A stretch of DNA of 25,738 nt from a virus (Duplodnaviria; Caudoviricetes). A model generated the notes under the pieces. That model worked only from the letters and a program-made list of their open reading frames with translations, did not search any database and was not told the DNA's origin. A program made the position numbers and the translations under genes. Location: positions 1-25,738 of the IMG/VR virus record IMGVR_UViG_3300037851_000480; one strand, written 5' to 3'. Below, piece by piece: positions 8,051 through 25,738 of the stretch (position 1 is the stretch's first letter; each line of letters opens with the position of its first letter).

Positions 8051-8680
8051 ATGAAAATTTTGTGCTACCACAGAGTAACAGAAGATGTTGATAAAAGCGA
8101 TCCGTACTCAATCTCCAGGTACGATCTGGAGATAAAGCTATCGCGATATTTGCACAGGGGGAAGACTATTGGAACCTGCGCAGACGTTGTGAATGGTCGG
8201 GTCGATATAGGTCTGTCTTTTGACGATGGAACAAACGACTTTTTTACGACAGCCGCTCCGCTACTTGAGCAGATGGGATTATCCGCTACCGTGTTTGTGG
8301 TTACCAGCAATGCCGGAAGTTTTGCAGCATGGATAGAAAGCAGCGGGCAATTTCTGATGGATTGGCGAGAGATATGCGATCTACACAGGCGCGGCTTCGA
8401 AATTGGTAGCCACAGCTGCTATCATCGTGTGTTGCCAGCACTGGAAACAGGCAACATCATAAGTGAAATTAACTCTAGCTTTAACAAAATTCTACGTGAA
8501 ACTGAGTGTGCCCCGCTTGGGTTTGCATATCCATACGGGATTTTTGATGACAATGTCATGGATTATGTGATGAGCAAATACAGCTATGCTGTTGCTGGCA
8601 GCGATGGAATCAAGCACTGCAGCTATGCGATCCAACGGGAGGTATATAAGCAGGATGAATCCACGCGATCTATGCGATAG
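8051..8680 (+). CDS. Polysaccharide deacetylase (CE4/NodB, IcaB/PgaB-like)
   Basis: ILCYHRV, LSFDDG, ATVFVVT, MDW.EI..L...GFEIGSHSCYH, FAYPYG; GAGGT RBS; no signal peptide. Confidence 0.92.
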   Translation: MKILCYHRVTEDVDKSDPYSISRYDLEIKLSRYLHRGKTIGTCADVVNGRVDIGLSFDDGTNDFFTTAAPLLEQMGLSATVFVVTSNAGSFAAWIESSGQFLMDWREICDLHRRGFEIGSHSCYHRVLPALETGNIISEINSSFNKILRETECAPLGFAYPYGIFDDNVMDYVMSKYSYAVAGSDGIKHCSYAIQREVYKQDESTRSMR

Positions 8681-8944: not shown

Positions 8945-10210
8945 TTGCCGTACAAAATAGTTCAGCGCGACGGAAAATATCTGGTTTACAAAATCGATGC
9001 AGAAGAGAATGCCATTGGCGATCCTCTGGGTGAGCACGACACAGAGGAAGAGGCGCAAAAGCAGATCGCTGCTTTGTATGCGTCAGAAAAAGCTGAGCAG
9101 GAAGAGCAGACCGAGAGCGTGAAACCTGACGCTCCGAAGAAAACCCGCACAGGGTACCTGTGCGAGATTACTGCACTGTCAGAAGCCACGATGGACGCGG
9201 ATAATAAGCGCGTTCGTGTTACGCTCATCAGGCCAGGCTGGTCGGCGAATAATCGCTATTATGGACAGCCTATGTTAGCGAGAGCGGCCAGTATGTTTGA
9301 AAATGCGAAAGCCTATTTCGATCATCCCAGCAAGGCCGAAAGCAAAGACAGACCAGAACGCTCGGTGCGTGACATTGCGGGATGGTACAGCGATGTTAGG
9401 TCTGAATCCGATGGGCGTATCACAGCAGATTTGAATATCATTGCTGATAGTGCGATTCCGCTGATAAATGCAGCAATCACGCGAAACTCGAATCTAGCCG
9501 GACTGTCGATAAACGCTATCGGCATAACCACGATGGGAGAGGCTGACGGGAAAAAGGGTGTAATTGTTGAGAGCATCGAAGAGGTAAAGTCGGGCGATAT
9601 AGTCACTACGCCAGCAGCAGGTGGAAAGTTCGAAGAGCTTCTCAATGCCAGCGTGAGTGATGGGATTGATATTATAAAAGCGATGCCAATGGCGGAGCTA
9701 ATCGAGAATTTACGCGACGCAAGGCAGGATGTCATGAAAGCGCTACAAAAGGAATGGAAGGTGGCGCGTGATAGTGATGCGCTGAGGACTGCGCGCGAGG
9801 AAGTGAAGAAACTGGGTGACGCTGAGAAAAAACTAAATCAGCAGAATCGGACATTGCAGGAGGCACTCGACAGAGCCAACGCTGAGCTGGTCGAGTTAAA
9901 ACGCCAGGCGAATGTCGACAGAATGCTCGAAACATCAAAGCTGCCCAAATCATGGAGGGACGCATTACGTGTGCAGATGTTGCAAGCACAACCTGATGGA
10001 TTAGCCGCGCTGCTGGAAGCGGAAACTAAAAAATATGAGACTATGAGGCCAGCGATTTCAATCGTTGGCGCTGGAGCTAATGTGACGAATACCACATTGC
10101 CGGCGGCGCGGTTTAATCCCATTGCAGCAGCACTTGGCGCAACAGATAGTAATGCGATCTACAACAACTTTGAAGAATATATGAAGTCAAAGATTAAGGA
10201 GAGTAAATAA
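8945..10210 (+). CDS. Prohead protease-scaffold fusion
   Basis: GGAGGG RBS, TTG start. Assemblin-fold motifs S.NNRYY, YFDHP, GLSINA.G, DIVTTPAAGG; C-terminal coiled coil; upstream of capsid. Confidence 0.85.
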   Translation: MPYKIVQRDGKYLVYKIDAEENAIGDPLGEHDTEEEAQKQIAALYASEKAEQEEQTESVKPDAPKKTRTGYLCEITALSEATMDADNKRVRVTLIRPGWSANNRYYGQPMLARAASMFENAKAYFDHPSKAESKDRPERSVRDIAGWYSDVRSESDGRITADLNIIADSAIPLINAAITRNSNLAGLSINAIGITTMGEADGKKGVIVESIEEVKSGDIVTTPAAGGKFEELLNASVSDGIDIIKAMPMAELIENLRDARQDVMKALQKEWKVARDSDALRTAREEVKKLGDAEKKLNQQNRTLQEALDRANAELVELKRQANVDRMLETSKLPKSWRDALRVQMLQAQPDGLAALLEAETKKYETMRPAISIVGAGANVTNTTLPAARFNPIAAALGATDSNAIYNNFEEYMKSKIKESK

Positions 10211-10758
10211 TGGCTAACACAGCAAATGACGCGGTTTTAGCTGCTGTAGCGTATGATGACGCAGTAATTTTTATGTCAGCATCAGGCACACAGACGATCA
10301 CTCGTGGTGACTGGATACTGGCAAGTGCAAGCTGGGCACTCAATGGCGGCAGTGGAGCAATCGGTTCTCCGGCCTATCGTGTATCGGCGCTTGGTATTGC
10401 GCTCGAAAACAATCCGACCTACAACTCCGTTGGGGTTGCAGTAAACAACAGCGGATTCAGCATCGCTCGACGTGGTGTTATGCGAGTATCAGCAGGAAAC
10501 TCTGGCACCGCTCGTACTATCCCTGTAGGAACATATGTATTTCCACAAGGGACTGGCAGCGGGATTGTTGGTCAGACCGGGCGAACTGGTGTTGGTGTGT
10601 CATGGTTGACAGCGCCCCCAGTGTCTATATCTGGCAACCCAACAGGTGCTATGGCATCGGGTGTTGCAATCGTTATCGCTCACCCGGTTGGTGGCGATAG
10701 TGGTATCGGCCAGTTGGACATCGTGTTTAATCTGGCTACTAATGCTCCGTGGTTATAG
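10210..10758 (+). CDS. Capsid decoration/cement protein
   Basis: Gly/Ala/Ser-rich beta protein between scaffold and capsid; I.RGD...LGIALE...ARRGV pattern. Confidence 0.7.
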   Translation: MANTANDAVLAAVAYDDAVIFMSASGTQTITRGDWILASASWALNGGSGAIGSPAYRVSALGIALENNPTYNSVGVAVNNSGFSIARRGVMRVSAGNSGTARTIPVGTYVFPQGTGSGIVGQTGRTGVGVSWLTAPPVSISGNPTGAMASGVAIVIAHPVGGDSGIGQLDIVFNLATNAPWL

Positions 10759-10770
10759 GGGGATAAAAAA

Positions 10771-11844
10771 ATGTTAGACAAAACAAAGGTTATTGAGATA
10801 ATTGACCCTGTAGCGCAGGAGATAAAAGAGACTGTTATCGACCAGAGCGCGAAGCCTGTTTCTACTGAGCCGAATCCGTTCAACACATACAAAAACACTG
10901 CCGGCCAGCGGATGACACTGTCTGAGGTCGCAGCACTTACAACGTCACAGTTTCCATCGCTTCTGAAGGACGGCCTTCGTCCTATCCTTTATGAGACCTA
11001 TGCGAACTTCCCGTCAACATGGCAGTTGTGGGCAGATCAGATGCAGTCTGATAAGCCGTATGAGGACTGGCTCGAATTTGACAAGATGGGGATTGCTCCC
11101 CTTGTTCCTGAGGGAGATGCCTATCCACACGTCAAGGTCGATTTTGACAGGACGGTGCAGATCAAGAATAACAAGTACGGGTTCATTCTGCCCATCACAA
11201 AAGAGATGATCCGCTTCGATCGTGTAAACATGATCCGGCAGCTAATCTCTGATCTGGGCCCGACGCTCGCTTACACTAAGGAGCAAAAGGCCTATGACGT
11301 GATCACTACTACTGCAAACTATGATCGCGCAACTACAGACTGCGCAGCGGGGGCAGTAAACTACTCGTCAACAGCGTTCAGCGCGACGGGTGTTATCACT
11401 GCACTAAATGTTCTGCGCACTCAGTGGGAAGCCACATCAGGGCGTTATCTGGGAGTTATGCCAGACACATTGATTTGTGGCCCTCAGCTGGAATACTATG
11501 CCAAGCAGCTGCTGCTCGCCGATCTGGTTGTGCGCCAGCATGGCAACACGAGCGCTGAGGTCATCGGAACCGGGCAGGAGAATCCACTTCGTCCGTATTT
11601 CAAGCAGATCATTGTTTCGCCTTTCATGCAGTCAACAGCATGGGTGGTAATGGAGGCCAAGAAGGCCGTGGTTGTACAGAACGTCGAGGGGCCGGAAATC
11701 ATTCAGGCAACTATGACAGGAGACAATTACAACTATCTCAACTACGATGTGCTGGAATACAGGATCAGCGAGTGGTTTGGCGTAGGGATGCTGAACTCAC
11801 GCTTTGCGTACTACTCAACAGGTGGAACTCCTGCGGTAACGTAG
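10771..11844 (+). CDS. Major capsid protein (Mu gpT-like, HK97 fold)
   Basis: TSQFPSLL, KYG....ITKEMI..D, PDTLICGPQLE..AKQLL; size and position fit. Confidence 0.9.
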   Translation: MLDKTKVIEIIDPVAQEIKETVIDQSAKPVSTEPNPFNTYKNTAGQRMTLSEVAALTTSQFPSLLKDGLRPILYETYANFPSTWQLWADQMQSDKPYEDWLEFDKMGIAPLVPEGDAYPHVKVDFDRTVQIKNNKYGFILPITKEMIRFDRVNMIRQLISDLGPTLAYTKEQKAYDVITTTANYDRATTDCAAGAVNYSSTAFSATGVITALNVLRTQWEATSGRYLGVMPDTLICGPQLEYYAKQLLLADLVVRQHGNTSAEVIGTGQENPLRPYFKQIIVSPFMQSTAWVVMEAKKAVVVQNVEGPEIIQATMTGDNYNYLNYDVLEYRISEWFGVGMLNSRFAYYSTGGTPAVT

Positions 11845-13290: not shown

Positions 13291-13671
13291 GTGGGACGTT
13301 CTGATTTTGGCAGGATAGTGCAGCAGCACCGTGGGATAGCTGATAACGTGGGAGATACAGCGATATGGCGCAGACATATTGGTGCTGCTTCTGTTAGCGA
13401 TATGGCACGTGCAGCTGGTGATGATGGTGCATCTACCTATTTCGAGCAAACGTGTACAGGGTTGTTCAGAACTGTTGTTTTTGGTGAGCAGCTGGTCAAT
13501 GGTGGACAGGTGGTTGCAGGGGATGTCGTCGCTACCATTGTTGATGCAGTACCATCCCAAAATGATGAAATTGTGTGGCGTGGAACAACATACAGAGTAG
13601 AGAGTGACACGCTACCCCAGCAAATTATGGGCGCTAGCGGATACAGGCTATTGTTGCGCAGGGGTCAATAG
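13291..13671 (+). CDS. Putative head-closure (stopper) protein
   Basis: PSQNDEIVWRGTTYRV (D.I.W.G..Y.V) motif; follows the adaptor. Confidence 0.7.
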   Translation: MGRSDFGRIVQQHRGIADNVGDTAIWRRHIGAASVSDMARAAGDDGASTYFEQTCTGLFRTVVFGEQLVNGGQVVAGDVVATIVDAVPSQNDEIVWRGTTYRVESDTLPQQIMGASGYRLLLRRGQ

Positions 13672-13700
13672 CCTGTCGCTATCCGGCTTGTTCGCATGTT

Positions 13701-13732
13701 ATAACTACAGTGAAAACTGTAGTTATTTTTTT
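13701..13732 (+). terminator. Intrinsic terminator overlapping a possible promoter
   Basis: Perfect 11-bp stem ATAACTACAGT-GAAA-ACTGTAGTTAT plus T-run; TGtTATAAC at 13697-13705. Confidence 0.7.
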
Positions 13733-13742
13733 GTGAGGTGGT

Positions 13743-15143
13743 ATGGAAATATTAACAAAAGAAGACGGTACAAAGTACAAAATCGCCTGGGTCGGGGACA
13801 TCGTTACGCCATCCGGGTTTGGGCGAATTGGTAACGAGGTATGCCGGCGATTGGTGATGAGAGGATGGGACATCATTGCGGCGAGTTACCAGTGGGGCGG
13901 GTATCCGTGGGCTGATCCCGCCGCGTTCCCATATAAGATTTTTCCTCTGGGCGGACGTGAGCCATTTGGTAATCTGGCAGGATGGATAGCTCAAGAGAAT
14001 CCTGACATCGTTATTAGCTGTCAGGACTTTCCGTACGCAGAGACTATCTACAACAATCTCCGTATCGACTGGTCAACAAAATTGATGGTTGTAATCACAC
14101 CGATTGATGGTGTGCCAATACATCCAAACTGGCTGGCACTGGTCGATGACGTTGATGCTACGATGGTTATATCTGAGTTTGGGGTTGAGGCGATGCGCAT
14201 GGCTGGAAAACAGGTACACCTGCTGCATCCAGCTACAAACTCCAACGAGTTTTACCCAGCAGACAGCAAAGAAGAAGTTTTTTCTGTGAGAGAAAAAATT
14301 GGCATGCCCAGGGATGCGTTTGTAGTTGGATCGTTTATGATGAATCAGGGCAGAAAAGCAATTCCAGATGTGATCGAACTGTTCTACGAATTCTCTCGCG
14401 ACAAAAAAAACACATTCCTGTATCTGGATATGGATAAAACATCCCCCGCTGGATGGGACATCCCCAGTGTGATCAAGCAGATGAACGCCGATCCATCCAA
14501 ACTACTTTTTAAGGGGGATGCGTTCAAAGTCGGAATGACATCATTGCGTGACAGGTATCTGTTGTGTGATGTCACGTGTCAGCTAGCCCATAGAGAGGGT
14601 TTTGGGCTTCCGAACATTGAAAGCCAGGCGTGTAAACTACCCGTGATGGTGCTGGACTGGTGCAGTGGCAGCGAGATAGCTGGCGAAGAGCGCGGTATAC
14701 TGGTTCGTCGCATCGATTACATGACACGAGGTACATGGGGAGGAGCAAGAGACGCATTCCCTGACATGAGAGACGCGCTCGCGAAACTGAATGCTGTTTA
14801 TTATGATGCGGATTTGCGACAGAAGTTAGGGAACAATGGGTACAAATACGCTACCAGCTACACATGGGACATGGCGGCTGACAGTTTAGAGACTGTCATC
14901 AAAAATGCGATAAAGTTACGAAAAAGTGAAACAAAACAGAAAAACGAGGGAAATATATATGTGCCAGGAACAGGGCTCGCAGACGAAGGGGATAGTCGTG
15001 CCACTAGAGGCTACACTTCCACCCCCACCAACGCTGTCGATTGTCGTTCCGTATTACAGGAGCTTACCACAGCTGATCAAGCTGCTTCAGTCGATGATCA
15101 ACACAGTGGCGATGGACAGGACACAGATAATCGTACAGGATGA
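13743..15143 (+). CDS. Glycosyltransferase, GT4-like (GT-B)
   Basis: SGFGRI, NQGRKAIP, EGFGLPNIESQACKLPV (E-x7-E), YTWD; GAGGTG RBS. Confidence 0.93.
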   Translation: MEILTKEDGTKYKIAWVGDIVTPSGFGRIGNEVCRRLVMRGWDIIAASYQWGGYPWADPAAFPYKIFPLGGREPFGNLAGWIAQENPDIVISCQDFPYAETIYNNLRIDWSTKLMVVITPIDGVPIHPNWLALVDDVDATMVISEFGVEAMRMAGKQVHLLHPATNSNEFYPADSKEEVFSVREKIGMPRDAFVVGSFMMNQGRKAIPDVIELFYEFSRDKKNTFLYLDMDKTSPAGWDIPSVIKQMNADPSKLLFKGDAFKVGMTSLRDRYLLCDVTCQLAHREGFGLPNIESQACKLPVMVLDWCSGSEIAGEERGILVRRIDYMTRGTWGGARDAFPDMRDALAKLNAVYYDADLRQKLGNNGYKYATSYTWDMAADSLETVIKNAIKLRKSETKQKNEGNIYVPGTGLADEGDSRATRGYTSTPTNAVDCRSVLQELTTADQAASVDDQHSGDGQDTDNRTG

Positions 15144-15783
15144 CTGTACCCCTGAGCATGATATACGCGATCTGCTGCGAGGGCCATTTACTATCAATCG
15201 CAATGCCGAAAATATCGGGTTTGCTGGAAATTGCAATGCAGGCGCTCAATTTGCAGACGGTGAGTGTATATGTTTTCTGAATCAGGACATAGCAGCGATT
15301 AACACCGGTTGGGCCGATTATATGCTGATGGTACTGGCAACAGACGAGAGTGCTGGGATAGTTGGTCCAAAACTGCTATTTCCAAACAATAGCATTCAGT
15401 CTGCTGGCGGTTTGTTTGATGGTAACAAGGGGCCTTTTCACAGGTATCTTGGATGGGCCGATCCAGATGACAGGCGCATCAATAAGCTGGAAAAAGTGTC
15501 GTGGCTAACAGGTGCTTGCATTATGATGAGAACAGCGGAATTTCATGCACTGGGCGGCTTCGATGAGGGGTATACTGGCGGGTATTTTGAGGATGTTGAT
15601 CTGTGTATGCGAGTAAAGCATGAGATCAAAAAACATATCTGGTATCAACCTGCTTCCCACCTGTATCATGATGCAGGCTCGACAGGTGGAAATAAAAATT
15701 TTATGAAAAACAGCATACGGTTCCACCAGAAGTGGGACAGCCAGATTGTGCCAGATACTCATGTTGTATGGGTCAATTACTAA
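14959..15783 (+). CDS. Glycosyltransferase, GT2 (WbbL/rhamnosyltransferase-like)
   Basis: LSIVVP, IIVQDDCT, N.GFAGNCNAG, FLNQD, WLTGAC, GGFDE.Y...YFEDVDLC.R; GAGGG RBS before ATG 14959. Confidence 0.93.
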   Translation: MCQEQGSQTKGIVVPLEATLPPPPTLSIVVPYYRSLPQLIKLLQSMINTVAMDRTQIIVQDDCTPEHDIRDLLRGPFTINRNAENIGFAGNCNAGAQFADGECICFLNQDIAAINTGWADYMLMVLATDESAGIVGPKLLFPNNSIQSAGGLFDGNKGPFHRYLGWADPDDRRINKLEKVSWLTGACIMMRTAEFHALGGFDEGYTGGYFEDVDLCMRVKHEIKKHIWYQPASHLYHDAGSTGGNKNFMKNSIRFHQKWDSQIVPDTHVVWVNY

Positions 15784-16658
15784 TGGACACAAAAAAAATA
15801 CTACTGCTGCAGACACTCTATCCTGTTTGTAGTGGGCGATATATGTACGATGCTTTTGAGCGGTTGGGTCACGATGTACGTGCTGCCGGAGATCGTGATG
15901 AGATAAAAAATCGGATATGGGGAATGCGGGTAAACGCGCGGCACATCTGGAATCCAAAGCGCCTTGAGGAGGGATGGTTCCCTGATCTTGTGCTGGTAAT
16001 GGATTCGTTCACGATGATAAAAAACAGGCTGTCCTGCGCGACCGCAGTTTATGGCGTAGATAATCACGTCTCACGCTATTTTTATGATGATGGAATCCGG
16101 TATGATCATTATTTTTTTGCGCACCATGACGGCCCGGCTATGCCAGTTTCAGAGATAGGGGCAATCTGGTTACCATGTGCATACGATGAGAGATTTTTTT
16201 GCAGCACTGACAGGAGCATCGAAGAACGCCCCTTTGACTTTGGGTTTAATGGGGTACTGTATCATAATCGAGCGCAGCTGATTGATGACATCCGTGATAG
16301 TGGGCATAGCGTATTATCAACGACGGGGTTATTGTATGGCGAGTACAACGCAGTAATGGGGTTGTGTAAAGTTGGGCTGTGCCTGAGCGTTAATGGCGAT
16401 CTGGCAATCCGGGTTTTTGAAAACATGGCGTCAGGGTGCGTAGTAATGACAGATGCAACAAAAGACCTTGAGCGTCTGGGCGCTCGTGACGGCGAGGAGT
16501 TTATTGGGTTTGATGGTACGATTTACGATTTGATTAAAAAGTACGATTCGATGTCAGAAAGCGATCTGGTGCGTATACAAAAAAACTCAGAACGATGGGT
16601 AAAAAATCACACATGGACACACAGAGCGCAACGGATACTGGAGGTAGTTTTTGGGTAA
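15783..16658 (+). CDS. Glycosyltransferase, CgeB/YkvP-like (Glyco_trans_1_2)
   Basis: WLPCAYDE, FDFGFNG.L...R, RVFENMASG.VVMTD, HTW.HRA..IL; TAATG coupling. Confidence 0.85.
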   Translation: MDTKKILLLQTLYPVCSGRYMYDAFERLGHDVRAAGDRDEIKNRIWGMRVNARHIWNPKRLEEGWFPDLVLVMDSFTMIKNRLSCATAVYGVDNHVSRYFYDDGIRYDHYFFAHHDGPAMPVSEIGAIWLPCAYDERFFCSTDRSIEERPFDFGFNGVLYHNRAQLIDDIRDSGHSVLSTTGLLYGEYNAVMGLCKVGLCLSVNGDLAIRVFENMASGCVVMTDATKDLERLGARDGEEFIGFDGTIYDLIKKYDSMSESDLVRIQKNSERWVKNHTWTHRAQRILEVVFG

Positions 16659-17439
16659 AAAAATCTACCTGTCTGCCAGTTCGTGGCCGGGTGACCCTGC
16701 ACGGTATTTGATGAGAGCGTTTAAGCAGATTGGTCACGAACTGGCGATCAAATACTGGGAGTCTGACCTGATAGTCAACTCGTGCAACAAATACGCAGTA
16801 TCATCAAGATGTCCAGAATGTGCATACATTCTGGATAGTATGCAGTACGATTTTTCTGATAGCGCGTATGAGTACATAAAAATGGGTTATTCCAGACCAG
16901 TGTATTTTGTCGATAGCCGCGATGTAACCAGCGAGAATCATAAATGGCTGCCATACGCCTATGATGAACAGCTTCATGGTTTTGGTTACGCATATGATGA
17001 GCGTCCGTTTGCCGTGGTGCTGTATGGGCAGATAAATGATAAACGACAGAAAGTGCTGGATGAGGTAAAAAAAATAACACATGTTGCGACCGGGTATGGC
17101 GACCATATTCTTTACAGCACGTGCTATAAAGCGGCAAAAATCAGCCTGTGCCAGTCTCGCTGCGGTAATCTGGACAGCAGGTTTTTTGAGAGTATGGCAA
17201 TGGGCGCTGTGGTGGTGGCGGACAGGAGAGCGGATATAGACGCACTTGGTTTTATCGATGGCGTCGATTATCTGGGATACGATACACCAGATGAGGCGGC
17301 GGATTGTGTCGAGCGGCTGTTGTCATTCCCGTCGCTTGCAAAATCACTGCAAGCTCACGCTTTGCAGTCAGTGAAACCTCACTCGTGGACTGCACGAGTG
17401 CAAAAAATATTGGAGGATTTTGGGTTATGCGAGGATTGA
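16651..17439 (+). CDS. Glycosyltransferase, CgeB/YkvP-like (paralogue)
   Basis: WLPYAYDE, RFFESMAMG.VVVAD, HSW.ARV.KIL; GGAGGT RBS with TTG start. Confidence 0.85.
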   Translation: MGKKIYLSASSWPGDPARYLMRAFKQIGHELAIKYWESDLIVNSCNKYAVSSRCPECAYILDSMQYDFSDSAYEYIKMGYSRPVYFVDSRDVTSENHKWLPYAYDEQLHGFGYAYDERPFAVVLYGQINDKRQKVLDEVKKITHVATGYGDHILYSTCYKAAKISLCQSRCGNLDSRFFESMAMGAVVVADRRADIDALGFIDGVDYLGYDTPDEAADCVERLLSFPSLAKSLQAHALQSVKPHSWTARVQKILEDFGLCED

Positions 17440-18173
17440 ATTTAGGATGTGGCAGGATACAGTTTCCAGTAGCTCCAGATGCACCTTATATCTGGCATCT
17501 GCGAAAATACCTTAATGAGTATTGCCCGACAGCTCACGATTTTGACGCAGAGTGGATAAATGCAGATCGAAATCAAATTGACGGGGTAGATGTGCAGGTT
17601 GACCTGTTCACATATCCGTGGATTCTGGATGGCGACCGTCCAGCGAGAGACAATTCGTTTGACGTGATATGGGCAAGTCACATTATTGAGCATATACCCC
17701 ACAGGGCTGAGTACAACCAGTACGCGGATTACAACCTAAAGCGAGCAGGCTCGGTTGATGGCTGGTATGCATTTTTTTATGAGGTATGGCGATTGTTGAA
17801 ACCGGATGGCATTGTACATCTGGTTTGCCCAAGTGCTTTCAGCGCCAGCGCAGTAGCCGATCCATCGCACTGCCGGTATATTTTACCAGAATCATTCAGC
17901 TACTTTAGACCTAATTTATCAGACCCATTCGATTATGGGATTGGTTATGCTTTTGACGCAATCAACAACGCAGAGGTTCGGCTGGTAAAAGAGGCGGAAG
18001 AAAAGTACAAAGAGTATGACGATATGTATCTCGCATATCTCAATGCGGAAGGCGAGCAAAAAAAAGAGTTATATGCTATTACAAAGCAGAAAAATCAAGA
18101 AATGATTAAGTATATGAATCGTCATATTAACTGCATCGAGGAATTGTACCTTGCGATGAAGCCAGTTAAGTGA
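17427..18173 (+). CDS. Class I SAM-dependent methyltransferase
   Basis: LNLGCG, WINAD, FDVIWASHIIEHI, EVWRLLKPDG, DPSH; GGAGG RBS before ATG 17427. Confidence 0.9.
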   Translation: MRGLNLGCGRIQFPVAPDAPYIWHLRKYLNEYCPTAHDFDAEWINADRNQIDGVDVQVDLFTYPWILDGDRPARDNSFDVIWASHIIEHIPHRAEYNQYADYNLKRAGSVDGWYAFFYEVWRLLKPDGIVHLVCPSAFSASAVADPSHCRYILPESFSYFRPNLSDPFDYGIGYAFDAINNAEVRLVKEAEEKYKEYDDMYLAYLNAEGEQKKELYAITKQKNQEMIKYMNRHINCIEELYLAMKPVK

Positions 18174-18183
18174 AAATCGAGGG

Positions 18184-18196
18184 TATAATTAGGTTA
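18184..18196 (+). promoter_or_regulatory. Putative -10 box giving a leaderless tail-module transcript
   Basis: TATAAT at 18184-18189, then 6 nt, then ATG 18196; no well-spaced SD. Confidence 0.5.
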
Positions 18197-18609
18197 TGCA
18201 AATATCTCTGGAGATTGATGATAACGGGCTAAAAGAGCGCCTTTCAAAAGCAACACCGGAAACAAAGCGCAAAGCGTGGGCGAAAATGCGCACAGTATCG
18301 TTTGCGATGGCTGAGCGTGTGAAGATGTGGCTGCTTCTGTCTGTAGACACTGGACGCGCGCGGTCGTCGTGGGGAATATGGACTAACGATCTGGTCAAAC
18401 CAAACCCTGACGCCAGCAGCGAGGATGCGGTTTACATAGAAGACGAAGCGAACATGAAAATCACGCAGGGCACAAACGTTGAGTATGTTCTCGATCTGGA
18501 AGAGGGCAGCAGCCAGCGCATGCCCGGTGGCGGAATTTCTGTGGCTGCTCAGGTGGCGGCAGATTTAATCGTAAAAGAGATTGGTGAGCTACTGGACGAG
18601 GTGATTTAA
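18196..18609 (+). CDS. HK97 gp10-like tail completion protein
   Basis: VDTGRARSSW and GTNVEY...LEEGS. Confidence 0.85.
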   Translation: MQISLEIDDNGLKERLSKATPETKRKAWAKMRTVSFAMAERVKMWLLLSVDTGRARSSWGIWTNDLVKPNPDASSEDAVYIEDEANMKITQGTNVEYVLDLEEGSSQRMPGGGISVAAQVAADLIVKEIGELLDEVI

Positions 18610-19212: not shown

Positions 19213-19704
19213 ATGCCAGAGCGGGAAGCAAGAGTTTTTGCAGAGGGTAGTTTGAGATGGGCGCAGGCGAGCGGCAGCGGGTTGTCATGGGCAACCGCCA
19301 GCGCAGCGGCCACAGGTCTACTCGGTTTTGTACAGGCCGGTATGTCTATAAACAGTGCGCGTGACATGCTCGCGGTTTATGATCGTGGCCTACCGAGCCA
19401 TCATAAATGGATGCAGTCGACCATGCCTGAGGTGACATTCACGTTTTTGCAGGCAGTGACCGCCAGTATGCCACCACTAGCGCCAACTGCCAGCGGCGCT
19501 AGCGTTCCTATGTTGCATTTTGAGATGAAACACGACATCGACGAAATACCGGGCAGCGCGCACTTCTGGCAGTTTGTTGGGGGTGTTTGTCTGTCGAACG
19601 GATTTACAGAAAACCGGGAAGGCAATACCATCCAGCAGACCTGGCGTTTTCTGTCATACACGGGGCCCACGGCTAGCGGATATTTGGCGACCGGCGGCCA
19701 GTAA
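19213..19704 (+). CDS. Putative major tail (tube) protein
   Basis: Position, own promoter and AGGAG RBS, 163 aa, beta-rich. Confidence 0.65.
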   Translation: MPEREARVFAEGSLRWAQASGSGLSWATASAAATGLLGFVQAGMSINSARDMLAVYDRGLPSHHKWMQSTMPEVTFTFLQAVTASMPPLAPTASGASVPMLHFEMKHDIDEIPGSAHFWQFVGGVCLSNGFTENREGNTIQQTWRFLSYTGPTASGYLATGGQ

Positions 19705-19716
19705 AGGGGGCTGCCA

Positions 19717-20124
19717 ATGGCAGAGGTATTTACGTGGGCTGAGGGGAGCGCCTACTTTTGGAGTGGAAATTCCAGCACGTCGGCGCGTCTCTCGTTTGCT
19801 CGCAACGCGACTGTTGCTACAACAGTATCACGATACAGATACCGCGTTCCCTACGCATCGACATGGACGTACATCGAAATTGACAGGGGCGCGGATTTGT
19901 CGATCTCGCAGGGTTTCAGCGATAAATCGCTGCTGAATTACCACCAGAATGCTGCTGGTGGGGTAGTTCACTGCCATATCAAAAATGTGGTTGGCACAAC
20001 AGGGACAAGTGGCGGAATTTTTCTTTGGACAGGTGAAATCAAGAGCCTGTCGGTTGGTGGCGGGGATGGCTCTGAGATGGCTGTCTCTCTCGCGGCCCAT
20101 TTCGACAACTGGAGCGCATACTAG
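19717..20124 (+). CDS. Second tail-tube-like protein
   Basis: N-terminus FTWAEGSAYFWSG resembles VFAEGSLRWAQ of the upstream gene; beta-rich. Confidence 0.5.
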   Translation: MAEVFTWAEGSAYFWSGNSSTSARLSFARNATVATTVSRYRYRVPYASTWTYIEIDRGADLSISQGFSDKSLLNYHQNAAGGVVHCHIKNVVGTTGTSGGIFLWTGEIKSLSVGGGDGSEMAVSLAAHFDNWSAY

Positions 20125-21435
20125 ATGAACAAGCTGATCAGAGTTGTCCTGTCACTAGTCAGTGATCAGTTCTCCAGCGGGATACAGAGCGCGATATCGA
20201 GCCTATCCGGCTTTGGCAATATTGTCTCGGGGCTGCGAGATGGCTTCTTGATGCTGAAAGGCGCGGCAACGGCGGTCTGGGATACATTTATTAAGGGCGC
20301 TATTGATGAGGAACGCCTAATCAGACAGATGGGAATTCTGGCAGGAAGCAGCGAAAAAGGCGCTGCACTTGTCGAGCGACTTGATAAATGGATCGTGCAG
20401 ACTGGGGTTGATGGGGCTGATGCTGAAGCCGCTTTCAGTGATCTGGCTGTTGGTATCAAAGCTGCAACCGGAGAGCTTGACCCTGATCAGCTTTTCAAGT
20501 ACATGGAGATCATCGAGAGTCTGGCTCTCGCAACCGGGAAAACTGCCTCGGATTTAGCGCGTCCAGTCATGCGCGCGATAACTGGAGATGTTGAGCAGCT
20601 AGCGAGAGCACTGGGGATCAACAAAGAGAGACTGGCTCAGCTATCACCAGAGTTTGCAAAAATGATGGACAGCGCTACTCAGGCGGGCGAGGCGCAACTC
20701 GGAGCAGTTACGAGACTGGCAGGTCGCAGTGAGCAGGTAGCAGGTGATGCGCTCAAGGCGCTGGAGGAGATTACTGCTGGTCTGACTGGTGGTCAGGATG
20801 TGCTGTCTGATTTTGGCGATAGTACTGAAGCCGAGTTAAACAGGGCTAAGCAGAACTGGGATGATTTTACCGAATTGGTTGGAGAACAATTTTTACCGAT
20901 CATCACTGACGCGCTGCGAGAAATAAACAAATGGATAGAAGAGCATCCAGAGGAAATCAAGCAGTTTATTGAGGCGTTCGGGAATTTCTCAGCCACACAG
21001 TGGGAGCGATTCGCTGATGCACTTTCTCGTGTTGACTGGGAAAAGATCGCAGACGTGATGCTGCTTATGGTCGAGGTTCTCGACAAAATGACGAATGCTG
21101 AATGGAAACTTCCGGGGGAAGATTTGTACGGCCTGTCGGCGGGACAGCTCGGAGCTATGGCTGCTACGGAGGGCAAAGCGCTAGAAAGCCAGTATAATGG
21201 ACAGCTCGGAGATGTGTCGACTGCGGCGCAGCTTGGAGGTTTAGGAAATTCTGCTGCCATGAAGGCGGGCTGGCAGCTTGGAGGTTGGATTGCGTCTAAT
21301 ATCAAGATCACTTTCGGGATTGATGAAGAGGGCCAGCTAAACGTAAAAAAGATCGCTGAGGACAAGGCGACAGACGCAATTGGTGCGGTTATCGAGAATA
21401 TGACAGAGCAGCATAGCAAAAAGGGCATGAGGTAG
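20125..21435 (+). CDS. Tape measure protein (short, 436 aa)
   Basis: Ala-rich helical protein; DQFSSGI, GDVEQLARALGI, GEQFLPII...L..I..WIEEHPE TMP-like motifs. Confidence 0.85.
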   Translation: MNKLIRVVLSLVSDQFSSGIQSAISSLSGFGNIVSGLRDGFLMLKGAATAVWDTFIKGAIDEERLIRQMGILAGSSEKGAALVERLDKWIVQTGVDGADAEAAFSDLAVGIKAATGELDPDQLFKYMEIIESLALATGKTASDLARPVMRAITGDVEQLARALGINKERLAQLSPEFAKMMDSATQAGEAQLGAVTRLAGRSEQVAGDALKALEEITAGLTGGQDVLSDFGDSTEAELNRAKQNWDDFTELVGEQFLPIITDALREINKWIEEHPEEIKQFIEAFGNFSATQWERFADALSRVDWEKIADVMLLMVEVLDKMTNAEWKLPGEDLYGLSAGQLGAMAATEGKALESQYNGQLGDVSTAAQLGGLGNSAAMKAGWQLGGWIASNIKITFGIDEEGQLNVKKIAEDKATDAIGAVIENMTEQHSKKGMR

Positions 21436-21437
21436 TC

Positions 21438-21785
21438 ATGGGCAGTTTTAGCATCAATGGAACTTTCAGTGCGTGCTATGATCCTGATATGGAGTCATGG
21501 GACGGTACTCCTGTGGTGGGCGCATTCGTTGGTGGGCGTCCGATCCGTCAAGGGTGGCCATCCTGTACGCTGCGTTTTCCTCCGCTTCCCAGCGCAGGCT
21601 TTAATGAACTGGTATCACGGTACGAGGCAAATAAAAGCTCGCAAACCAGCGGGAATGTTCCAGCGGTCAGCGGCTATGGATTTCGCGCATGCAGTGCATA
21701 TTTTGAAGAGCCGCATCTGGGCGGGTTCGACGGTGGTTTTGCGCTTGGAGTAACAATGAGGGTTTCGAGGATTGGCTGGTACTAA
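21438..21785 (+). CDS. Putative distal tail protein
   Basis: Small beta protein immediately after the TMP; GAGG RBS. Confidence 0.55.
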   Translation: MGSFSINGTFSACYDPDMESWDGTPVVGAFVGGRPIRQGWPSCTLRFPPLPSAGFNELVSRYEANKSSQTSGNVPAVSGYGFRACSAYFEEPHLGGFDGGFALGVTMRVSRIGWY

Positions 21786-23875
21786 TGGCTCTTTCTGCAC
21801 AGCAACTAACATACCTGAAAACATGCGACCAGCGATTTAAGGCGTCCGTTGCATTGTTTCCTGCCTACTCCCCAACCATCACCACCCCCACCCCCGGAGC
21901 TGGAACACTGCTAAACCATAAACCAATCCCCATGGTGTCGCCGCGCTACAGCGTTGTTGATAACAGTGGGTCGATAACATTGTATGCAACAGACAGCTAT
22001 AATCGTGGCGGCGAGTATGTTGGAAATAGCAACATCGCATGGGCTAATACAGGTGGTAGTGGCACTCTGGTAGATAACGCAGACGGCACGGCGACATACA
22101 CTGCACCTGCATCTGGTTCTGGAACAAACCTGATCACTATGACAGCATCAAACGACTATGGCGACAAAGATGCTAAAGTGTATGTTGCATACCCTAAAAG
22201 TGCATACGATGCTATCGCAGCTGAGATAGCGAGTATGTCAGGCAGTGTTGAGCAAAAAGGGTGGACTGTGACACTGAGAGTGCGCGGTGATACGAGCGCA
22301 TTCGAGATAGGCAAAATTGTCCTGTTGCACATCGATGATACGTGGTCTGGAACAACAAGTACTTTTGGTGGATATAAGTACGCTGAGGGTGTTTTTTGTG
22401 GTTACATCACAGACATGCAGTATTTTGAATCATGGGATGGGCAGCGATGGCTGGGCATAGAAGCACAATCTAGCTGGTGGAAACTCGATCAGATTCAGAT
22501 CGCGGAAACATACTGGGGAAGAACGAAAGCGACCGGGCGCTATTATCGCAGTGATTTTGTTCCCGTAGACGCTGCGTGGAAATTTGTCAACGATATAACC
22601 GATTTCACTAGTAGGCATAACGTAACGCTGTTTTACGACACAAATGTCATTGACGATTTGATCATAGGAAAAAGCGCTGATGGCTATACCAGCCTGGCGA
22701 CCATCATTGAGGATTTGATGGGGCGTGGCCTTGCGATTGCATACACTGACAGGTACTCCAGTCTGATGTGCATCCCTGATCCAGATGTCAGGAGTGCTGA
22801 ATGGTGGGGAACTCCAGAGCCTATGTTTGATTCATCTGGAGATGGCGCGCTGACTGAGCAGTTTTGTTTTAGCTATGAGATACAGAGACATCATACACCC
22901 AATGTCAAAAAGCTATCGTTGATAGCATACGATAGCAGTAAACTTGGGCTATGGGCAGTCAGCCAGGCGAGCGCTGGTTCGCCCGGCAGTGAGAGTGCCA
23001 TTAAGGGCCTTTTATGTGATGATGTGTTACAACTGGTTGCGTGGGCAAAAGAGAAGCGGGCGCAGATGAATAAGCCGTGGCATATCCGCGCCGACATCCC
23101 TCTCAATCACGTAGTTGATATATGCAGTCCGGTTGATGTTGATTTTACCAACCCGCTGTTAGCCGGTGGACTAACTGCTGCCGGTCTGGCATGGGTTGAG
23201 TCAATCAGCTATCGGCCAACCACCGATGGAAAGTGGCGCGGGCAGTGGGTTCTGGCTAAAAACACTCAGAGCGATACAGGACTCTCTGGCGAAATCACGG
23301 GATGGGGCGGAACGGGGCAATGGGGAAGCAGGAGCGGTATCACCGGAATCGATCTTGAAAACACAGGAGGATGGACTGCGCCAAGTCAGGGTAGCTCGAC
23401 GTGGTATCATCTATTTAATTTTATAAACTCAGGTTATGGAGGTTGGAGCGCTCAAACTGATATAAACTACCACACCTCAGGCTACGCTGGCAGCTATCAA
23501 TCCGGCTATGGCTGGAGCGCTATGAGGGTCTGGAGCACAGATGATAATCGGTGGGACTGGTGGATTGACATATACCAGCCTATCAGCCCGCGGACGATCA
23601 CGGGAATGCGATTCTGGATAAGTGCAGGTGGCGGCGATTCGCTCGGTTTTATCGTACACTCAGAGCAGGATATGGTGGATACAAGCGGAATCAACTTTGT
23701 ACAAACGTCTCCGCTTACGCCAGGTGTCAGTATCCAGAGTGCAGCAACGTCGTATGAAAACGTAAGCGGATTAACAATTGGTTTTGCATGTTATGAGCCG
23801 CCCAGCGCGGTCGATGGGCCACGGATTTACAGTGCAGCGTTTGGTGGATATGGAGCCGATCCATTTTCGGGGTAA
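21785..23875 (+). CDS. Putative tail hub/tip protein with Ig-like N-terminal and aromatic-rich C-terminal domains
   Basis: GTLVDNADGTATYTAPASG Ig/PKD-like segment; VFCGYITD hub-like motif; Trp/Gly-rich C-terminus. Confidence 0.65.
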   Translation: MALSAQQLTYLKTCDQRFKASVALFPAYSPTITTPTPGAGTLLNHKPIPMVSPRYSVVDNSGSITLYATDSYNRGGEYVGNSNIAWANTGGSGTLVDNADGTATYTAPASGSGTNLITMTASNDYGDKDAKVYVAYPKSAYDAIAAEIASMSGSVEQKGWTVTLRVRGDTSAFEIGKIVLLHIDDTWSGTTSTFGGYKYAEGVFCGYITDMQYFESWDGQRWLGIEAQSSWWKLDQIQIAETYWGRTKATGRYYRSDFVPVDAAWKFVNDITDFTSRHNVTLFYDTNVIDDLIIGKSADGYTSLATIIEDLMGRGLAIAYTDRYSSLMCIPDPDVRSAEWWGTPEPMFDSSGDGALTEQFCFSYEIQRHHTPNVKKLSLIAYDSSKLGLWAVSQASAGSPGSESAIKGLLCDDVLQLVAWAKEKRAQMNKPWHIRADIPLNHVVDICSPVDVDFTNPLLAGGLTAAGLAWVESISYRPTTDGKWRGQWVLAKNTQSDTGLSGEITGWGGTGQWGSRSGITGIDLENTGGWTAPSQGSSTWYHLFNFINSGYGGWSAQTDINYHTSGYAGSYQSGYGWSAMRVWSTDDNRWDWWIDIYQPISPRTITGMRFWISAGGGDSLGFIVHSEQDMVDTSGINFVQTSPLTPGVSIQSAATSYENVSGLTIGFACYEPPSAVDGPRIYSAAFGGYGADPFSG

Positions 23876-23878
23876 TTT

Positions 23879-25738
23879 ATGGCAAATTACGATCTTGATA
23901 ATCTGGCAGCAAAATTAGGAGACCATATTGACGCAAAGGCCGCTTCAATGTGGCCCGGCACTACGTTACTACAGGTCATCGATGCCTCTGATCAGATTGC
24001 TCAGGGTTATGTCTGGTGCGATCTGGCTAGCACAGTTGTCAGGTGTTATGTACCAAATGGCATCAAGCTGGACGCGGGGCAGGTCATATATGCTCTACCT
24101 GTCAATTCGGGAACCGACAGCGAGTATGTCTGTCTGGGTGTTTCGTGGAATGGCACAGATAACAGTCGATTTCCACGTATGGTTGCTGAGAGCATAGAAA
24201 AACCTGACGGAACGCCTATCGGTGGAGGAAGCGGAACAGTAACCAGCGTAGGTATAAGCGCATCTCCGGCAAGTGTTTTTGGTGTGAGTGATTCTCCAGT
24301 GACTAGCAGCGGAACTATTGCACTATCGATGGACAACCAGAACGCTAATGTTGTGTTAGCAGGCCCATCCAGTGGAGCCGCCGCGGAGCCAGCATTCAGA
24401 GCGCTGGCGGCTGCGGATATACCAACCAGCTTGCCATCGCTGGATCATAACTCGTTGACCAATCTGGATACTGGTGATGTGCATACCCAGTACATTCTAA
24501 AATCGCTGTTTGAAGCGAACACGTTGCTAAAAGCGGACGCGGACAACACGCCAGAGGCACTTACTATCGCAGAGAGCAGCATAGTTGGCAGGCTGACTGG
24601 CGGAGAAATTGGCAGCCTGACAGGAGCGCAAGCGGCCACGCTCTTACCTGATGTGGTTGGTGATTCTGGCAGCGGCGGAACCAGTGGACTAGTTCCGGCT
24701 CCGGGGGCAGGGGATGCAGCAGATGGAAAGTTTCTTAAGGCCAGCGGGGAATGGGCTGTTCCCCCATCCTCATCGGGAAGTGCTGGTGGTGATGCATTAG
24801 AAGCTCGCCTAACACTTGAGACTGGCGTTGCAGTTAGCGTAACCGCTCAAACTGCAAAGACAACGGTGTACCTGACACCATATCACGGTAATTTTATCAG
24901 TGTTTATGATGGGGATTCGTGGTCACAACTGGAACTAACGAGCGACATCAGTATAAAATTAACAGACTCACAGACAGGAACAACAACAAATGGCAATGCT
25001 CAGATAACTGGTCTGACTGACACCAGCCAGCTCATCGCCGGAATGCTGGTATCCGGTACTGGCGTGGCGGCGAATTCAACGATCAGCAGCATCGATAGCG
25101 CGACTGCGGTAACCCTGAATAACAACTGCACGGCAAGCGGAACGGTTACCATCACTTTCAAGGTCGCAGCAAATAAAAATTTAGATATTTTTGCAGAAGA
25201 TTCCAGCGGGCTTGTTTTGTCGATGGTAGCGTGGACAAACGACACCACCAGAGCAACCGCTATTGCATTACAGGATGGTCGATATGTTCTGAGTGGAAGC
25301 GAGACCAAGCGGTACTGCGGGACTGTGCGCACCACGTCCACTGACGGTCAGACCGAGATTACATCATCAAATTGTTTGTTGTTTAACGCAAAAAACAGAG
25401 TGCAAAAAAGGCTATTTTGCACAGATTCTACTTCTCAGTGGACATACACAACAGCTACGCACAGAGCAGCTAATAATAACACGACAGTAGGTACAGGGCG
25501 TGTAGCATTTGTTGTTGGTATAAATGACATGCCGGTATCGGCAACAAATGTAAGTGGAGCAGCGAATAACTCTGCGGTCGTACTCGCGATTGGTGGCATT
25601 GGTATAGACAGTACATCAGTAAACAGTTCTACGGTAAGTCATGGATACGGAGTCTTAAACACAGCAGGGTTATACTCAACTATACTGTCCATATACCATG
25701 CGTTTACTGGAATCGGTTACCATTATATACAGCGTCTC
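23879..25738 (+). CDS. Tail spike/fibre protein, 3' truncated
   Basis: Not in ORF track. 620 open codons from ATG 23879 (MANYDLDNLAAKL...) to the window end; fibre motifs GTVTSVG, SPVTSSGTI, AGP.SG..A.P.FRAL.A.DIP, GLVPAP.AG....FL...G.W. Confidence 0.85.
   Translation, partial: MANYDLDNLAAKLGDHIDAKAASMWPGTTLLQVIDASDQIAQGYVWCDLASTVVRCYVPNGIKLDAGQVIYALPVNSGTDSEYVCLGVSWNGTDNSRFPRMVAESIEKPDGTPIGGGSGTVTSVGISASPASVFGVSDSPVTSSGTIALSMDNQNANVVLAGPSSGAAAEPAFRALAAADIPTSLPSLDHNSLTNLDTGDVHTQYILKSLFEANTLLKADADNTPEALTIAESSIVGRLTGGEIGSLTGAQAATLLPDVVGDSGSGGTSGLVPAPGAGDAADGKFLKASGEWAVPPSSSGSAGGDALEARLTLETGVAVSVTAQTAKTTVYLTPYHGNFISVYDGDSWSQLELTSDISIKLTDSQTGTTTNGNAQITGLTDTSQLIAGMLVSGTGVAANSTISSIDSATAVTLNNNCTASGTVTITFKVAANKNLDIFAEDSSGLVLSMVAWTNDTTRATAIALQDGRYVLSGSETKRYCGTVRTTSTDGQTEITSSNCLLFNAKNRVQKRLFCTDSTSQWTYTTATHRAANNNTTVGTGRVAFVVGINDMPVSATNVSGAANNSAVVLAIGGIGIDSTSVNSSTVSHGYGVLNTAGLYSTILSIYHAFTGIGYHYIQRL

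Follow-up and report, generated by a model that had tools for sequence, protein, structure and literature searches.

Background

In the literature searched, virion glycosylation by phage-encoded enzymes has been experimentally reported for mycobacteriophages only. For cluster O mycobacteriophages it had already been proposed that glycosyltransferases (GTs) and a methyltransferase (MTase) produce a methylated capsid glycan (excerpts of PMC4351075), and one MTase and three GTs of this cluster are described as modifying both capsid and tail tube (excerpts of PMC11600133, citing Freeman 2023). The modification has been placed at the C-termini of the virion proteins, with no greater precision in excerpts of PMC12619734. 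Two other systems share elements with these enzymes. In the chlorovirus pathway (PBCV-1 A064R and A061L; NY-2A B736L/A546L) soluble virus-encoded GTs build a capsid glycan that is methyl-capped by A064R, a GT-GT-MTase fusion protein (excerpts of PMC9614988). For the Bacillus spore crust, a surface-shell protein with a threonine in an exposed loop has been proposed as the glycosylation substrate of CgeB, a cytoplasmic GT, and CgeB with UDP-glucose gave a slight gel shift of CgeA (excerpts of PMC13577073).

In this work we have analyzed a GT-MTase cassette in 25,738 nt of tailed-phage DNA (IMG/VR record IMGVR_UViG_3300037851_000480; hereafter the window), whose host is probably a member of the Anaerolineae (Chloroflexota). 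A literature search found no description of this cassette family. We propose, with a probability of roughly 70%, that the cassette O-glycosylates virion proteins in the cytoplasm late in infection, the glycan being methyl-capped; in this proposal the acceptor, the sugars and the timing are inferred.

Organization of the cassette

The first-pass annotation, made from the sequence alone, described overlapping genes for a GT4, a GT2, two CgeB/YkvP-like GTs and a SAM methyltransferase, wedged between head-closure and gp10-like genes. Pfam and PHROG matches and the coordinates bear out both the composition and the location of the block:

13291..13671, + strand, left flank, head-closure protein Hc1 (phrog_161, E 3e-6)
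13697..13733, + strand, extended -10-like motif TGTTATAAC that overlaps a palindrome of 11 pairs followed by a T run; lies just 5′ of GT4
13743..15143, + strand, GT4-type (GT-B) glycosyltransferase, 466 aa, core gene (PF00534, E 2e-8; phrog_2170, E 9e-26)
14959..15783, + strand, GT2 (GT-A) glycosyltransferase, 274 aa, core gene (PF00535, E 8e-11)
15783..16658, + strand, CgA, PF13524 (CgeB/YkvP-like) GT-B glycosyltransferase, 291 aa, near-core gene (PF13524, E 1e-11)
16651..17439, + strand, CgB, second PF13524 glycosyltransferase, 262 aa, TTG start, accessory paralog (PF13524, E 5e-14)
17427..18173, + strand, class I SAM-dependent methyltransferase (MTase), 248 aa, core gene (PF08241, E 6e-6; phrog_22502)
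18196..18609, + strand, right flank, Neck1/tail-completion protein (phrog_169, E 2e-6; phrog_5, E 4e-4)

The five cassette ORFs, all on the + strand, overlap successively by 185, 1, 8 and 13 nt as read from the sequence, the final ~60 codons of GT4 being shared with GT2 in a different frame. A GT4-GT2 frameshift fusion was rejected as the reason for the 185-nt overlap, since GT2 has its own ATG preceded by a ribosome-binding-like GAGGG and the distance between the two genes varies in relatives (-284 to +1214 nt). At the other end of the cassette the MTase stop codon overlaps the Neck1 start or lies within 5 nt of it in 21/29 loci, with start codons called heuristically. The absence of an evident transmembrane helix, noted at first pass, agrees with a Kyte-Doolittle scan (a hydropathy measure, not a dedicated transmembrane or signal-peptide predictor) in which the highest 19-residue means of the cassette proteins were 0.89-1.48 and none of 100 ORFs from relatives exceeded 1.9. 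The statement that the window holds no sugar-synthesis genes also stands, as no such Pfam family was found among its 30 scanned proteins.

The element at 13697..13733 is a candidate promoter, operator or attenuator. The pattern TGYTATAAY, picked after it had been seen in the window, occurs exactly four times in the window (0.66 expected), preceding the modules for terminase, capsid, GT and tube. The palindrome with its T run could break the coupling between cassette and head genes; a crude test found no such combination before GT4 in 29 relatives.

Conservation of the cassette in related phages

The head-closure/Neck1 site was compared in 29 deduplicated loci from divergent, uncultured relatives, among which 28 carry GT4-GT2-PF13524-MTase. 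GT4, GT2 and MTase are present at the site in all 29 and CgA in 28, the exception being L042 with another GT4 in its place. The second PF13524 copy was found in 0/29 relatives, CgB being seen in the window only, so that the initial emphasis on two CgeB-like enzymes has to be abandoned. When the search was seeded with the adaptor, all 32 loci spanning the interval contained GT4 and GT2, as did 24/24 spanning loci in a tube-seeded search; both reverse searches used alignments derived from cassette-bearing loci, and only two of six new adaptor contigs spanned the interval. The MTase is missing from one contig (L018/L164/L208), and the constant part of the cassette is GT4 plus GT2. The flanking genes, taken at first pass to be normally adjacent, are never so in this lineage.

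The enzymes have mean pairwise identities of 0.39-0.48, the structural proteins of 0.32-0.50. The enzyme distances correlate with those of portal, scaffold, adaptor and head-closure proteins (0.46-0.73) and poorly with those of the capsid protein (0.18-0.30), which also follows most other genes poorly. Judged by synteny and by these distances, the cassette is an old lineage-wide fixture that diverges like structural genes, and not the recent insertion that the word wedge had implied. Lineage-specific variation includes a CgA-MTase fusion in L029 and L034, probably a single event since the two are sister rows in the tree, and genes for B12-dependent radical SAM proteins 3′ of the MTase in L008, L012 and L060.

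Fourteen of the 15 records searched for partner genes (see below) are estimated to be incomplete, the complete one being G414. ORFs were picked greedily for a Pfam scan of six relatives (281 ORFs), and shadow ORFs displaced some true genes. With the capsid alignment as query, a search of 401 genomes retrieved 36 distant homologs and, from the family itself, only the member already known (G001). The closest cellular homologs of GT4 (L098, L100, L130 and L131; 34-35% identity) include two labelled Anaerolineales/Anaerolineaceae and are encoded immediately 3′ of genes for DUF3352 proteins whose N-termini resemble signal peptides; a literature search on DUF3352 returned nothing. A quick tree places these homologs inside the phage clade, so that they may be derived.

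Motifs and predicted folds of the enzymes

GT4 exceeds the PF00534 cut-off (34 bits against 26.4), and the residues E285-x7-E293 and N201-Q-G-R-K205 are invariant across 50 aligned homologs; the domain and the E-x7-E motif together place it among retaining GTs. Its profile matches BshA and chlorovirus B736L (positions 12-396, E 5e-8). In GT2 the residues D61 D62, N108-Q-D110 and E211 D212 are invariant in 27 sequences, and the best NCBIfam match is MftF, far under the cut-off. CgA and CgB score 45 and 53 bits with PF13524 (cut-off 25). CgA, for which NCBIfam gave no match, combines this domain with a predicted GT-B fold (pLDDT 92) and thereby qualifies as CgeB/YkvP-like; CgB retains all 14 columns that are invariant among the aligned CgA sequences and has CgA orthologs as its best matches (26-28% identity). 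The MTase contains an LNLGCG motif and invariant H85 E88 H89 P91 H92 and P146 H148 R150, and it lacks the catalytic motifs of DNA methylases. No match to CgA or MTase was obtained by tblastn against cultured phages.

The models were compared by VIA-align wide searches, which inform on fold only. CgA aligned with PimA at Z 20.9 (rmsd 3.4, 273 aligned) and with T4 DNA alpha-glucosyltransferase at Z 20.3, the latter sharing the top places with PimA and BshA. The MTase model (pLDDT 93) has a class I fold with a best Z of 13.8 (rmsd 5.5, 169 aligned) and matched generic class I enzymes only; no glycan-specific MTase was among its best 50 fold matches, which excludes nothing. As far as predicted models go, neither fold reveals the acceptor, in the case of CgA because the DNA-modifying enzyme ties with PimA and BshA. 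The nearest solved relatives of GT4 and CgA (BshA, MshA and PimA) act on small molecules or lipids.

Relation to described systems

The closest analogs are Corndog gp35-38 and Che8 gp108-110, which likewise comprise several soluble GTs and a methyltransferase (excerpts of PMC11600133, PMC12619734, PMC10877033 and PMC4351075); the Corndog set, an MTase with three GTs, also lies within the structural operon, and the acceptors proposed in these sources, capsid and tail tube near their C-termini, resemble the candidates described below. The enzymes differ: TylF-type MTase, GT2-like and GT25-like proteins in Corndog/Che8, as against GT4, GT2, PF13524 and Methyltransf_11-type proteins here, with no GT25 or TylF family found in the window. 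The cassette GT2 profile (A5) gave only remote matches to gp37 and gp109 (E ~2e-6 and 6e-6, in a search of 35 sequences), and profiles A1, A6 and A7 gave no meaningful match to Corndog gp35-38 or Che8 gp108-110. The sites are also distinct (head-closure/Neck1 here rather than portal/protease), as probably are the hosts, Chloroflexota as opposed to mycobacteria. By analogy, the best reading is that the cassette works like the Corndog/Che8 systems with mostly non-orthologous enzymes.

The chloroviruses offer a second parallel, with soluble GTs, a GT-MTase fusion and the kind of methyl cap proposed here (excerpts of PMC9614988). The GT4 profile matches B736L, whose acceptor is unproven, over nearly its full length; A064R was not matched in the cassette profile searches, and the chloroviruses differ in being eukaryotic giant viruses with an N-linked glycan. 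The likeness to CgeB, shared by two cassette genes, is at the level of the PF13524 domain, which spans just the C-terminal ~105 residues. No cgeA-like partner was seen here, and the activity of CgeB itself is weakly shown (excerpts of PMC13577073).

Among cultured phages, three of the five matched (S-CBS4, phiPsal1 and Mae-JY09) carry a homologous GT4 with a GT2-like neighbor inside the head-neck module (profile E 1e-41 to 4e-26, 23-26% identity). Their sites differ, they have no separate PF13524 gene, and they encode an MTase of another subfamily or, in Mae-JY09, an epimerase; the records state no function for these blocks.

Candidate acceptor proteins

Three products of the window were considered as putative acceptors:

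10210..10758, + strand, Gly/Ser/Thr-rich protein encoded between protease/scaffold and capsid genes (no family match)
10771..11844, + strand, major capsid protein (PF25209) with a Ser/Thr-rich C-terminal tail, last ~11 residues
19213..19704, + strand, A[ST]G-rich tail-tube-fold protein (Atlas model matching tail-tube clusters, TM 0.60-0.75)

The capsid tail is the leading candidate on sequence grounds. It is kept in 29 family sequences, with a mean of 5.7 Ser plus Thr in the last 12 residues (range 3-7), and missing from 20 distant homologs (mean 0.75, range 0-3), among whose 121 scanned neighbors no GT was found. These 20 control capsids are mostly longer proteins of the protease-capsid type and look related; as they are not independent, the computed Mann-Whitney p-value means little and was discarded. 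The capsid tails of cultured phages with a distant GT4 are poorer in Ser plus Thr (1-4 of 12) than those described here. In Corndog and Che8 the terminal serine of capsid and tube proteins reportedly bears the glycan. Their capsid and tube proteins end in Ser in 4/4 cases, unlike those of the window (Thr in the capsid, Gln in the tube); in the family the final residue varies and the Ser/Thr tract precedes it.

The tail-tube-fold protein may be a second acceptor. The product of 10210..10758, present in 27/29 loci with 13.7 A[ST]G per 1000 aa, is by its position likely to be a head decoration protein and is a further candidate. N-x-S/T and D-S/T-x sequons showed only modest enrichment in virion proteins. 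Isoelectric point was dropped as a discriminator, the medians being 5.4-6.0 and the terminase likewise 5.5.

Proposed function and alternatives

Under the preferred reading the cassette genes would be expressed together with the head and tail genes late in infection. The first sugar would be attached to Ser/Thr of exposed unstructured segments, foremost the capsid tail, probably by GT4 or GT2, as these form the constant pair. The remaining GTs would lengthen the chain from host NDP-sugars, with CgB adding an extra residue specific to the window; the MTase would O-methylate the sugar placed by the PF13524 enzyme and terminate the chain, and the finished coat would serve to mask or hydrate the virion.

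The enzymes might instead modify, from the cytoplasmic side and via host export, a glycoconjugate of the host surface (a glycoprotein, a glycolipid or a lipid-linked precursor), e.g. blocking superinfection or re-adsorption of progeny. We consider this unlikely, even if all four enzyme families are frequent in envelope clusters, the cellular GT4 homologs adjoin secreted-type DUF3352 proteins, one relative carries a provirus classification and the cassette may have its own promoter. It has no membrane partner. GtrA (PF04138) was found in 0/5 records (positive control 8/14), tyrosine integrase in 0/15, of which 14 are estimated incomplete, and resolvase in 0/5 (both with positive controls). Its fixed order and slow divergence are not those of serotype-conversion morons, and the nesting of the cellular homologs in the phage clade of the quick tree makes them look derived. 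We regard it as quite improbable that the enzymes serve counter-defence or metabolism by making or modifying either a soluble glycoside or an intracellular host protein, with their place in the late operon only setting the timing. The substrates of BshA, MshA and PimA, the sub-threshold MftF match of GT2 and the radical SAM genes following the MTase would fit such a role, which leaves the fixed neck-gene site, the Neck1 overlap and the family-specific Ser/Thr capsid tail unexplained.

Very unlikely, in our view, is that the phage DNA is hypermodified before packaging by attachment of a methylated oligosaccharide. Phage GTs are described as adding mono- to trisaccharides to 5hmC, with some clusters near structural genes (excerpts of bioRxiv 10.1101/2023.12.21.572611), and the tie of CgA with T4 alpha-glucosyltransferase would suit this, as would the C5-methylase matches in 3/15 records (two over the cut-off) and the DUF5131 and Mom-like genes of relatives. 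The known pathways require a hydroxylated base from ThyS-like/5mYOX enzymes, usually clustered with the GTs according to excerpts of the same preprint and of PMC13326640. ThyA-like proteins (PF00303) were found in 0/15 records including G414 (positive control 10/14) and ThyX (PF02511) in 0/5, again including G414 (positive control 5/14). No oxygenase occurred among the scanned cassette inserts (74 proteins in all) and the MTase lacks DNA-methylase motifs for catalysis; TET/JBP oxygenase (PF12851) gave 0/15, with an equally blank control. In G414, the complete relative, nothing matched thymidylate synthase, C5-methylase, GtrA or integrase, which weakens the DNA and serotype-conversion readings alike. 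An epimerase over the cut-off was found in none of the 15 records.

Glycosylation of the virion, already suggested at first pass, remains the best-supported reading: the soluble enzymes have a fixed place in the morphogenesis operon and are tightly coupled to Neck1, no DNA-hydroxylation or Gtr partners were found, and Corndog provides a precedent; the wedge and the emphasis on two CgeB-like enzymes were the parts of that suggestion which did not survive. It is possible, although we hold it doubtful, that O-glycosylation of the particle is obligatory throughout a deep family of tailed phages of Chloroflexota. The GT4/GT2/CgeB-like/MTase line would read co-occurring Ser/Thr motifs on the capsid (C-terminal tail of the SSSTTAPT type) and on decoration, adaptor and tube proteins (A[ST]G), giving a full methylated coat with lineage-specific tailoring by an extra GT or a B12 radical SAM protein, and a host lineage would have captured GT4 for its own secreted proteins.

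Conclusions

With a candidate acceptor peptide and four soluble enzymes named, the proposal is testable without culture of the host, and it might yield a compact toolkit for cytoplasmic protein O-glycosylation. If virion glycosylation is the true function, the cassette would represent a second, mostly non-orthologous core enzyme set kept throughout a deep phage family; glycan-coated particles would then be an old and repeated trait of tailed phages rather than an actinobacterial oddity, and many phage GTs now classed as host-directed auxiliary genes may target the virion.

Organization of the cassette

The 25,738-base virus record (G000) covers the morphogenesis half of a tailed phage, with genes for terminase, portal, Mu-F-like protein, protease/scaffold, capsid, adaptor (assigned by position only), head closure, Neck1, a tube-fold protein and tape measure. 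Between head closure and Neck1 five enzyme genes, all above the Pfam cut-off, overlap one another:

13291-13671, head closure, left flank of the cassette
13743-15143, + strand, GT4 glycosyltransferase (GT)
14959-15783, + strand, GT2
15783-16658, + strand, PF13524 (CgeB/YkvP-like) GT, CgA
16651-17439, + strand, second PF13524 GT, CgB
17427-18173, + strand, SAM methyltransferase (MTase)
18196-18609, Neck1, right flank of the cassette

The enzymes are soluble, as no hydrophobic segment was found in them (maximum 19-residue mean of 1.48 in the window; 0 of 100 ORFs from relatives above 1.9), which bears out the first-pass annotation that they have no evident TM helix. Their catalytic-type motifs are invariant in alignments of 25-50 sequences, and confident models show a GT-B fold for CgA and a class I fold for MTase.

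Outside the conserved cassette, between the Mu-F-like and protease/scaffold genes, the window encodes a polysaccharide deacetylase (PF01522, E 2e-19; 8051-8680, + strand), found in 0 of 29 relatives, which could tailor N-acetyl sugars or act on a host glycan. Two short tandem genes (19213-20124), the first with a tube fold, precede a short tape measure of 436 aa (region 20125-25738). For the tape measure and the tail-tip genes, the sole match is the contig of one relative, L001, so the tail end was swapped while neck and cassette were kept.

Conservation across relatives

The cassette is a fixture of the phage family. A GT4 search gave 378 homologs out of 4,836 candidates, and the GT4 profile gave 41 viral, 80 metagenome and 26 genome loci. 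Among these and one further locus, the head-closure/Neck1 interval is spanned by 49, reduced to 27 by deduplication at >=85% GT4 identity; two from an adaptor search made 29. The synteny check proposed in the first-pass annotation held for GT4, GT2 and MTase (29/29) and for CgA (28/29; in locus L042 another GT4 replaces it), and failed for the second PF13524 gene (0/29). One contig removed as redundant (L018/L079/L164/L208) is devoid of MTase, and in two sister loci CgA is fused to MTase.

Selection bias was checked by searches seeded with structural proteins. GT4 and GT2 were present in 32/32 spanning loci of the adaptor search (32 of 42 loci) and 24/24 of the tube search (24 of 30); among the ten non-spanning adaptor loci GT4 is visible in six and four end <=751 nt from the adaptor. 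Some bias remains, because the seed proteins were themselves drawn from loci with the cassette and just two new spanning contigs were added. Cassette enzymes have diverged about as far as structural genes (mean identity 0.39-0.48 versus 0.32-0.50); enzyme distances track those of portal, scaffold, adaptor and head closure (0.46-0.73) and weakly those of capsid (0.18-0.30).

Variable inserts are mostly small ORFs of no known family and homing endonucleases. In three loci of one subclade a B12-binding radical SAM gene follows MTase:

L008:9385-10665
L012:13621-14883
L060:14666-16942

The L060 copy contains Hint and LAGLIDADG domains, which probably mark an intein. A proteasome-subunit-like gene (PF00227; L044:9425-9985) is inserted immediately 5' of GT4, and tube-protein paralogs have moved into the head module, between portal and the Mu-F-like gene or right after the latter (L010:2640-3101, L196, L204:6128-7012).

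Candidate expression signals and probable host

With heuristic starts, the MTase stop overlaps the Neck1 start or is <=5 nt from it in 21/29 loci, and GT4 starts <=31 nt from the head-closure stop in 9/27. The motif TGYTATAAY, picked after inspection, occurs four times in the window against 0.66 expected (0/100 shuffles reach four), at 2344, 8877, 13697 and 19143, all on the + strand, preceding the terminase, capsid, GT and tube modules. A hairpin and T run lie downstream at the capsid, GT and tube sites, and sites 8877 and 19143 share a downstream motif of ~15 nt. These sites are candidate late promoters with attenuators; they would fit shared late control of the modules, but could also allow the cassette to be controlled separately.

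The phage host is likely a member of Anaerolineae. One GT4 homolog carries this label, and MAGs of Anaerolineae, Chloroflexi and Phycisphaerales include contigs with the cassette, although such binning may be noise. Four apparently chromosomal GT4 copies (L131:5259-11104, L100, L130, L098), two of them in Anaerolineales/Anaerolineaceae genomes, sit on a long branch nested inside the phage clade in a quick tree; in their genomes they lie 3' of one or two DUF3352 genes whose products begin with a signal-peptide-like segment. Capture of a phage GT4 by the host is possible. The literature search found no mention of DUF3352.

Candidate substrates of the enzymes

Serotype conversion of the Gtr type requires membrane partners and usually lysogeny. 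One relative's record is classed as a provirus, but GtrA (0/5 relatives), integrase (0/15) and resolvase (0/5) were not found. Glycosylation of phage DNA requires a hydroxylated base, supplied by a ThyS-like or 5mYOX enzyme whose gene usually lies close to that of the GT (bioRxiv 10.1101/2023.12.21.572611; PMC13326640). Such partners were sought in 15 relatives, of which G414 (66.8 kb, with terminal repeats) is the only one estimated to be complete: ThyA matched in 0/15 and ThyX in 0/5, while a C5-methylase matched in three of 15 (two above cut-off), but not in G414. A TET search gave no match, but neither did its control. The fold of CgA does not point to one type of acceptor, since T4 alpha-glucosyltransferase is as close to it as PimA and BshA are (Z 20.3-20.9, rmsd 3.3-3.5, 269-279 aligned). 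Three of six relatives scanned carry DUF5131 genes (L239:1942-2739, L240:14075-14812, L243:2426-3151), two also with MT-A70 methylases.

We favour late cytoplasmic O-glycosylation of virion proteins, with a probability of about 0.7. Priming of Ser/Thr on exposed segments would fall to GT4 or GT2; the remaining GTs would extend the chain and MTase would cap the residue contributed by the PF13524 enzyme, as suggested by the CgA-MTase fusion and as the chlorovirus PBCV-1 protein A064R does (PMC9614988). In this model the enzyme classes, their solubility, the synteny and the coupling are observed, and the acceptor, the sugars, the order of steps and the timing are inferred. Neither an epimerase above cut-off (15 relative records) nor sugar-synthesis families (281 ORFs from six relatives) were found, so the donors are probably NDP-sugars of the host. 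The GT2 profile matches polypeptide GalNAc-transferases (E 1e-11, positions 4-237), perhaps through a resemblance common to GT-A enzymes in general.

In the capsid proteins of the family, a conserved tail rich in S/T extends beyond the last conserved motif and is a candidate acceptor, with a mean S+T in the last 12 residues of 5.7 (29 family sequences) and 5.0 (66 of 72 database homologs, those long enough to score). Twenty distant homologs from genomes of G001's class end at the motif (mean 0.75), with no GT family among 121 neighbouring ORFs scanned; these controls appear mutually related and some of their contigs are short. Cultured phages with a distant GT4 have no such tail, which counts against generality. 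One control element (L274:7273-11611) combines integrase, reverse transcriptase and an Mtd-like gene, like a diversity-generating retroelement. In the decoration, adaptor and tube families the pattern [ST]A[ST]G reaches 2.8-9.5 per 1000 residues, versus <=0.2 in portal, scaffold and cassette enzymes; since virion beta-proteins are commonly rich in S/T/G anyway, the pattern is treated as a lead to further acceptors.

Comparison with known systems

In mycobacteriophage Corndog, three GT genes and one for an O-methyltransferase sit between those for portal and protease, and it was suggested in 2015 that their products decorate the capsid with methyl and glycan groups (PMC4351075); later papers, citing Freeman 2023, state that these enzymes modify both capsid and tail tube and do so at the C-termini (PMC11600133, PMC12619734, PMC10877033). 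Those enzymes are TylF, GT2-like and GT25-like, of which only GT2 is remotely similar to ours, and the terminal-Ser pattern of the mycobacteriophage system is missing here; the cassette is therefore not a member of the Corndog-type system. CgeB offers a weak protein-acceptor precedent for PF13524 (PMC13577073). Phages S-CBS4, phiPsal1 and Mae-JY09 have a homologous GT4 block within their head-neck module, unlike TJE1 and S-EIV1. Mangrove phage GX15bay (L235:13126-18249) has six annotated GTs and a methyltransferase directly 5' of terminase. The literature search found no description of this cassette family. If virion proteins are the acceptors, the cassette would resemble Corndog in its mode of working and would represent a different enzyme set for an already reported kind of virion glycosylation.
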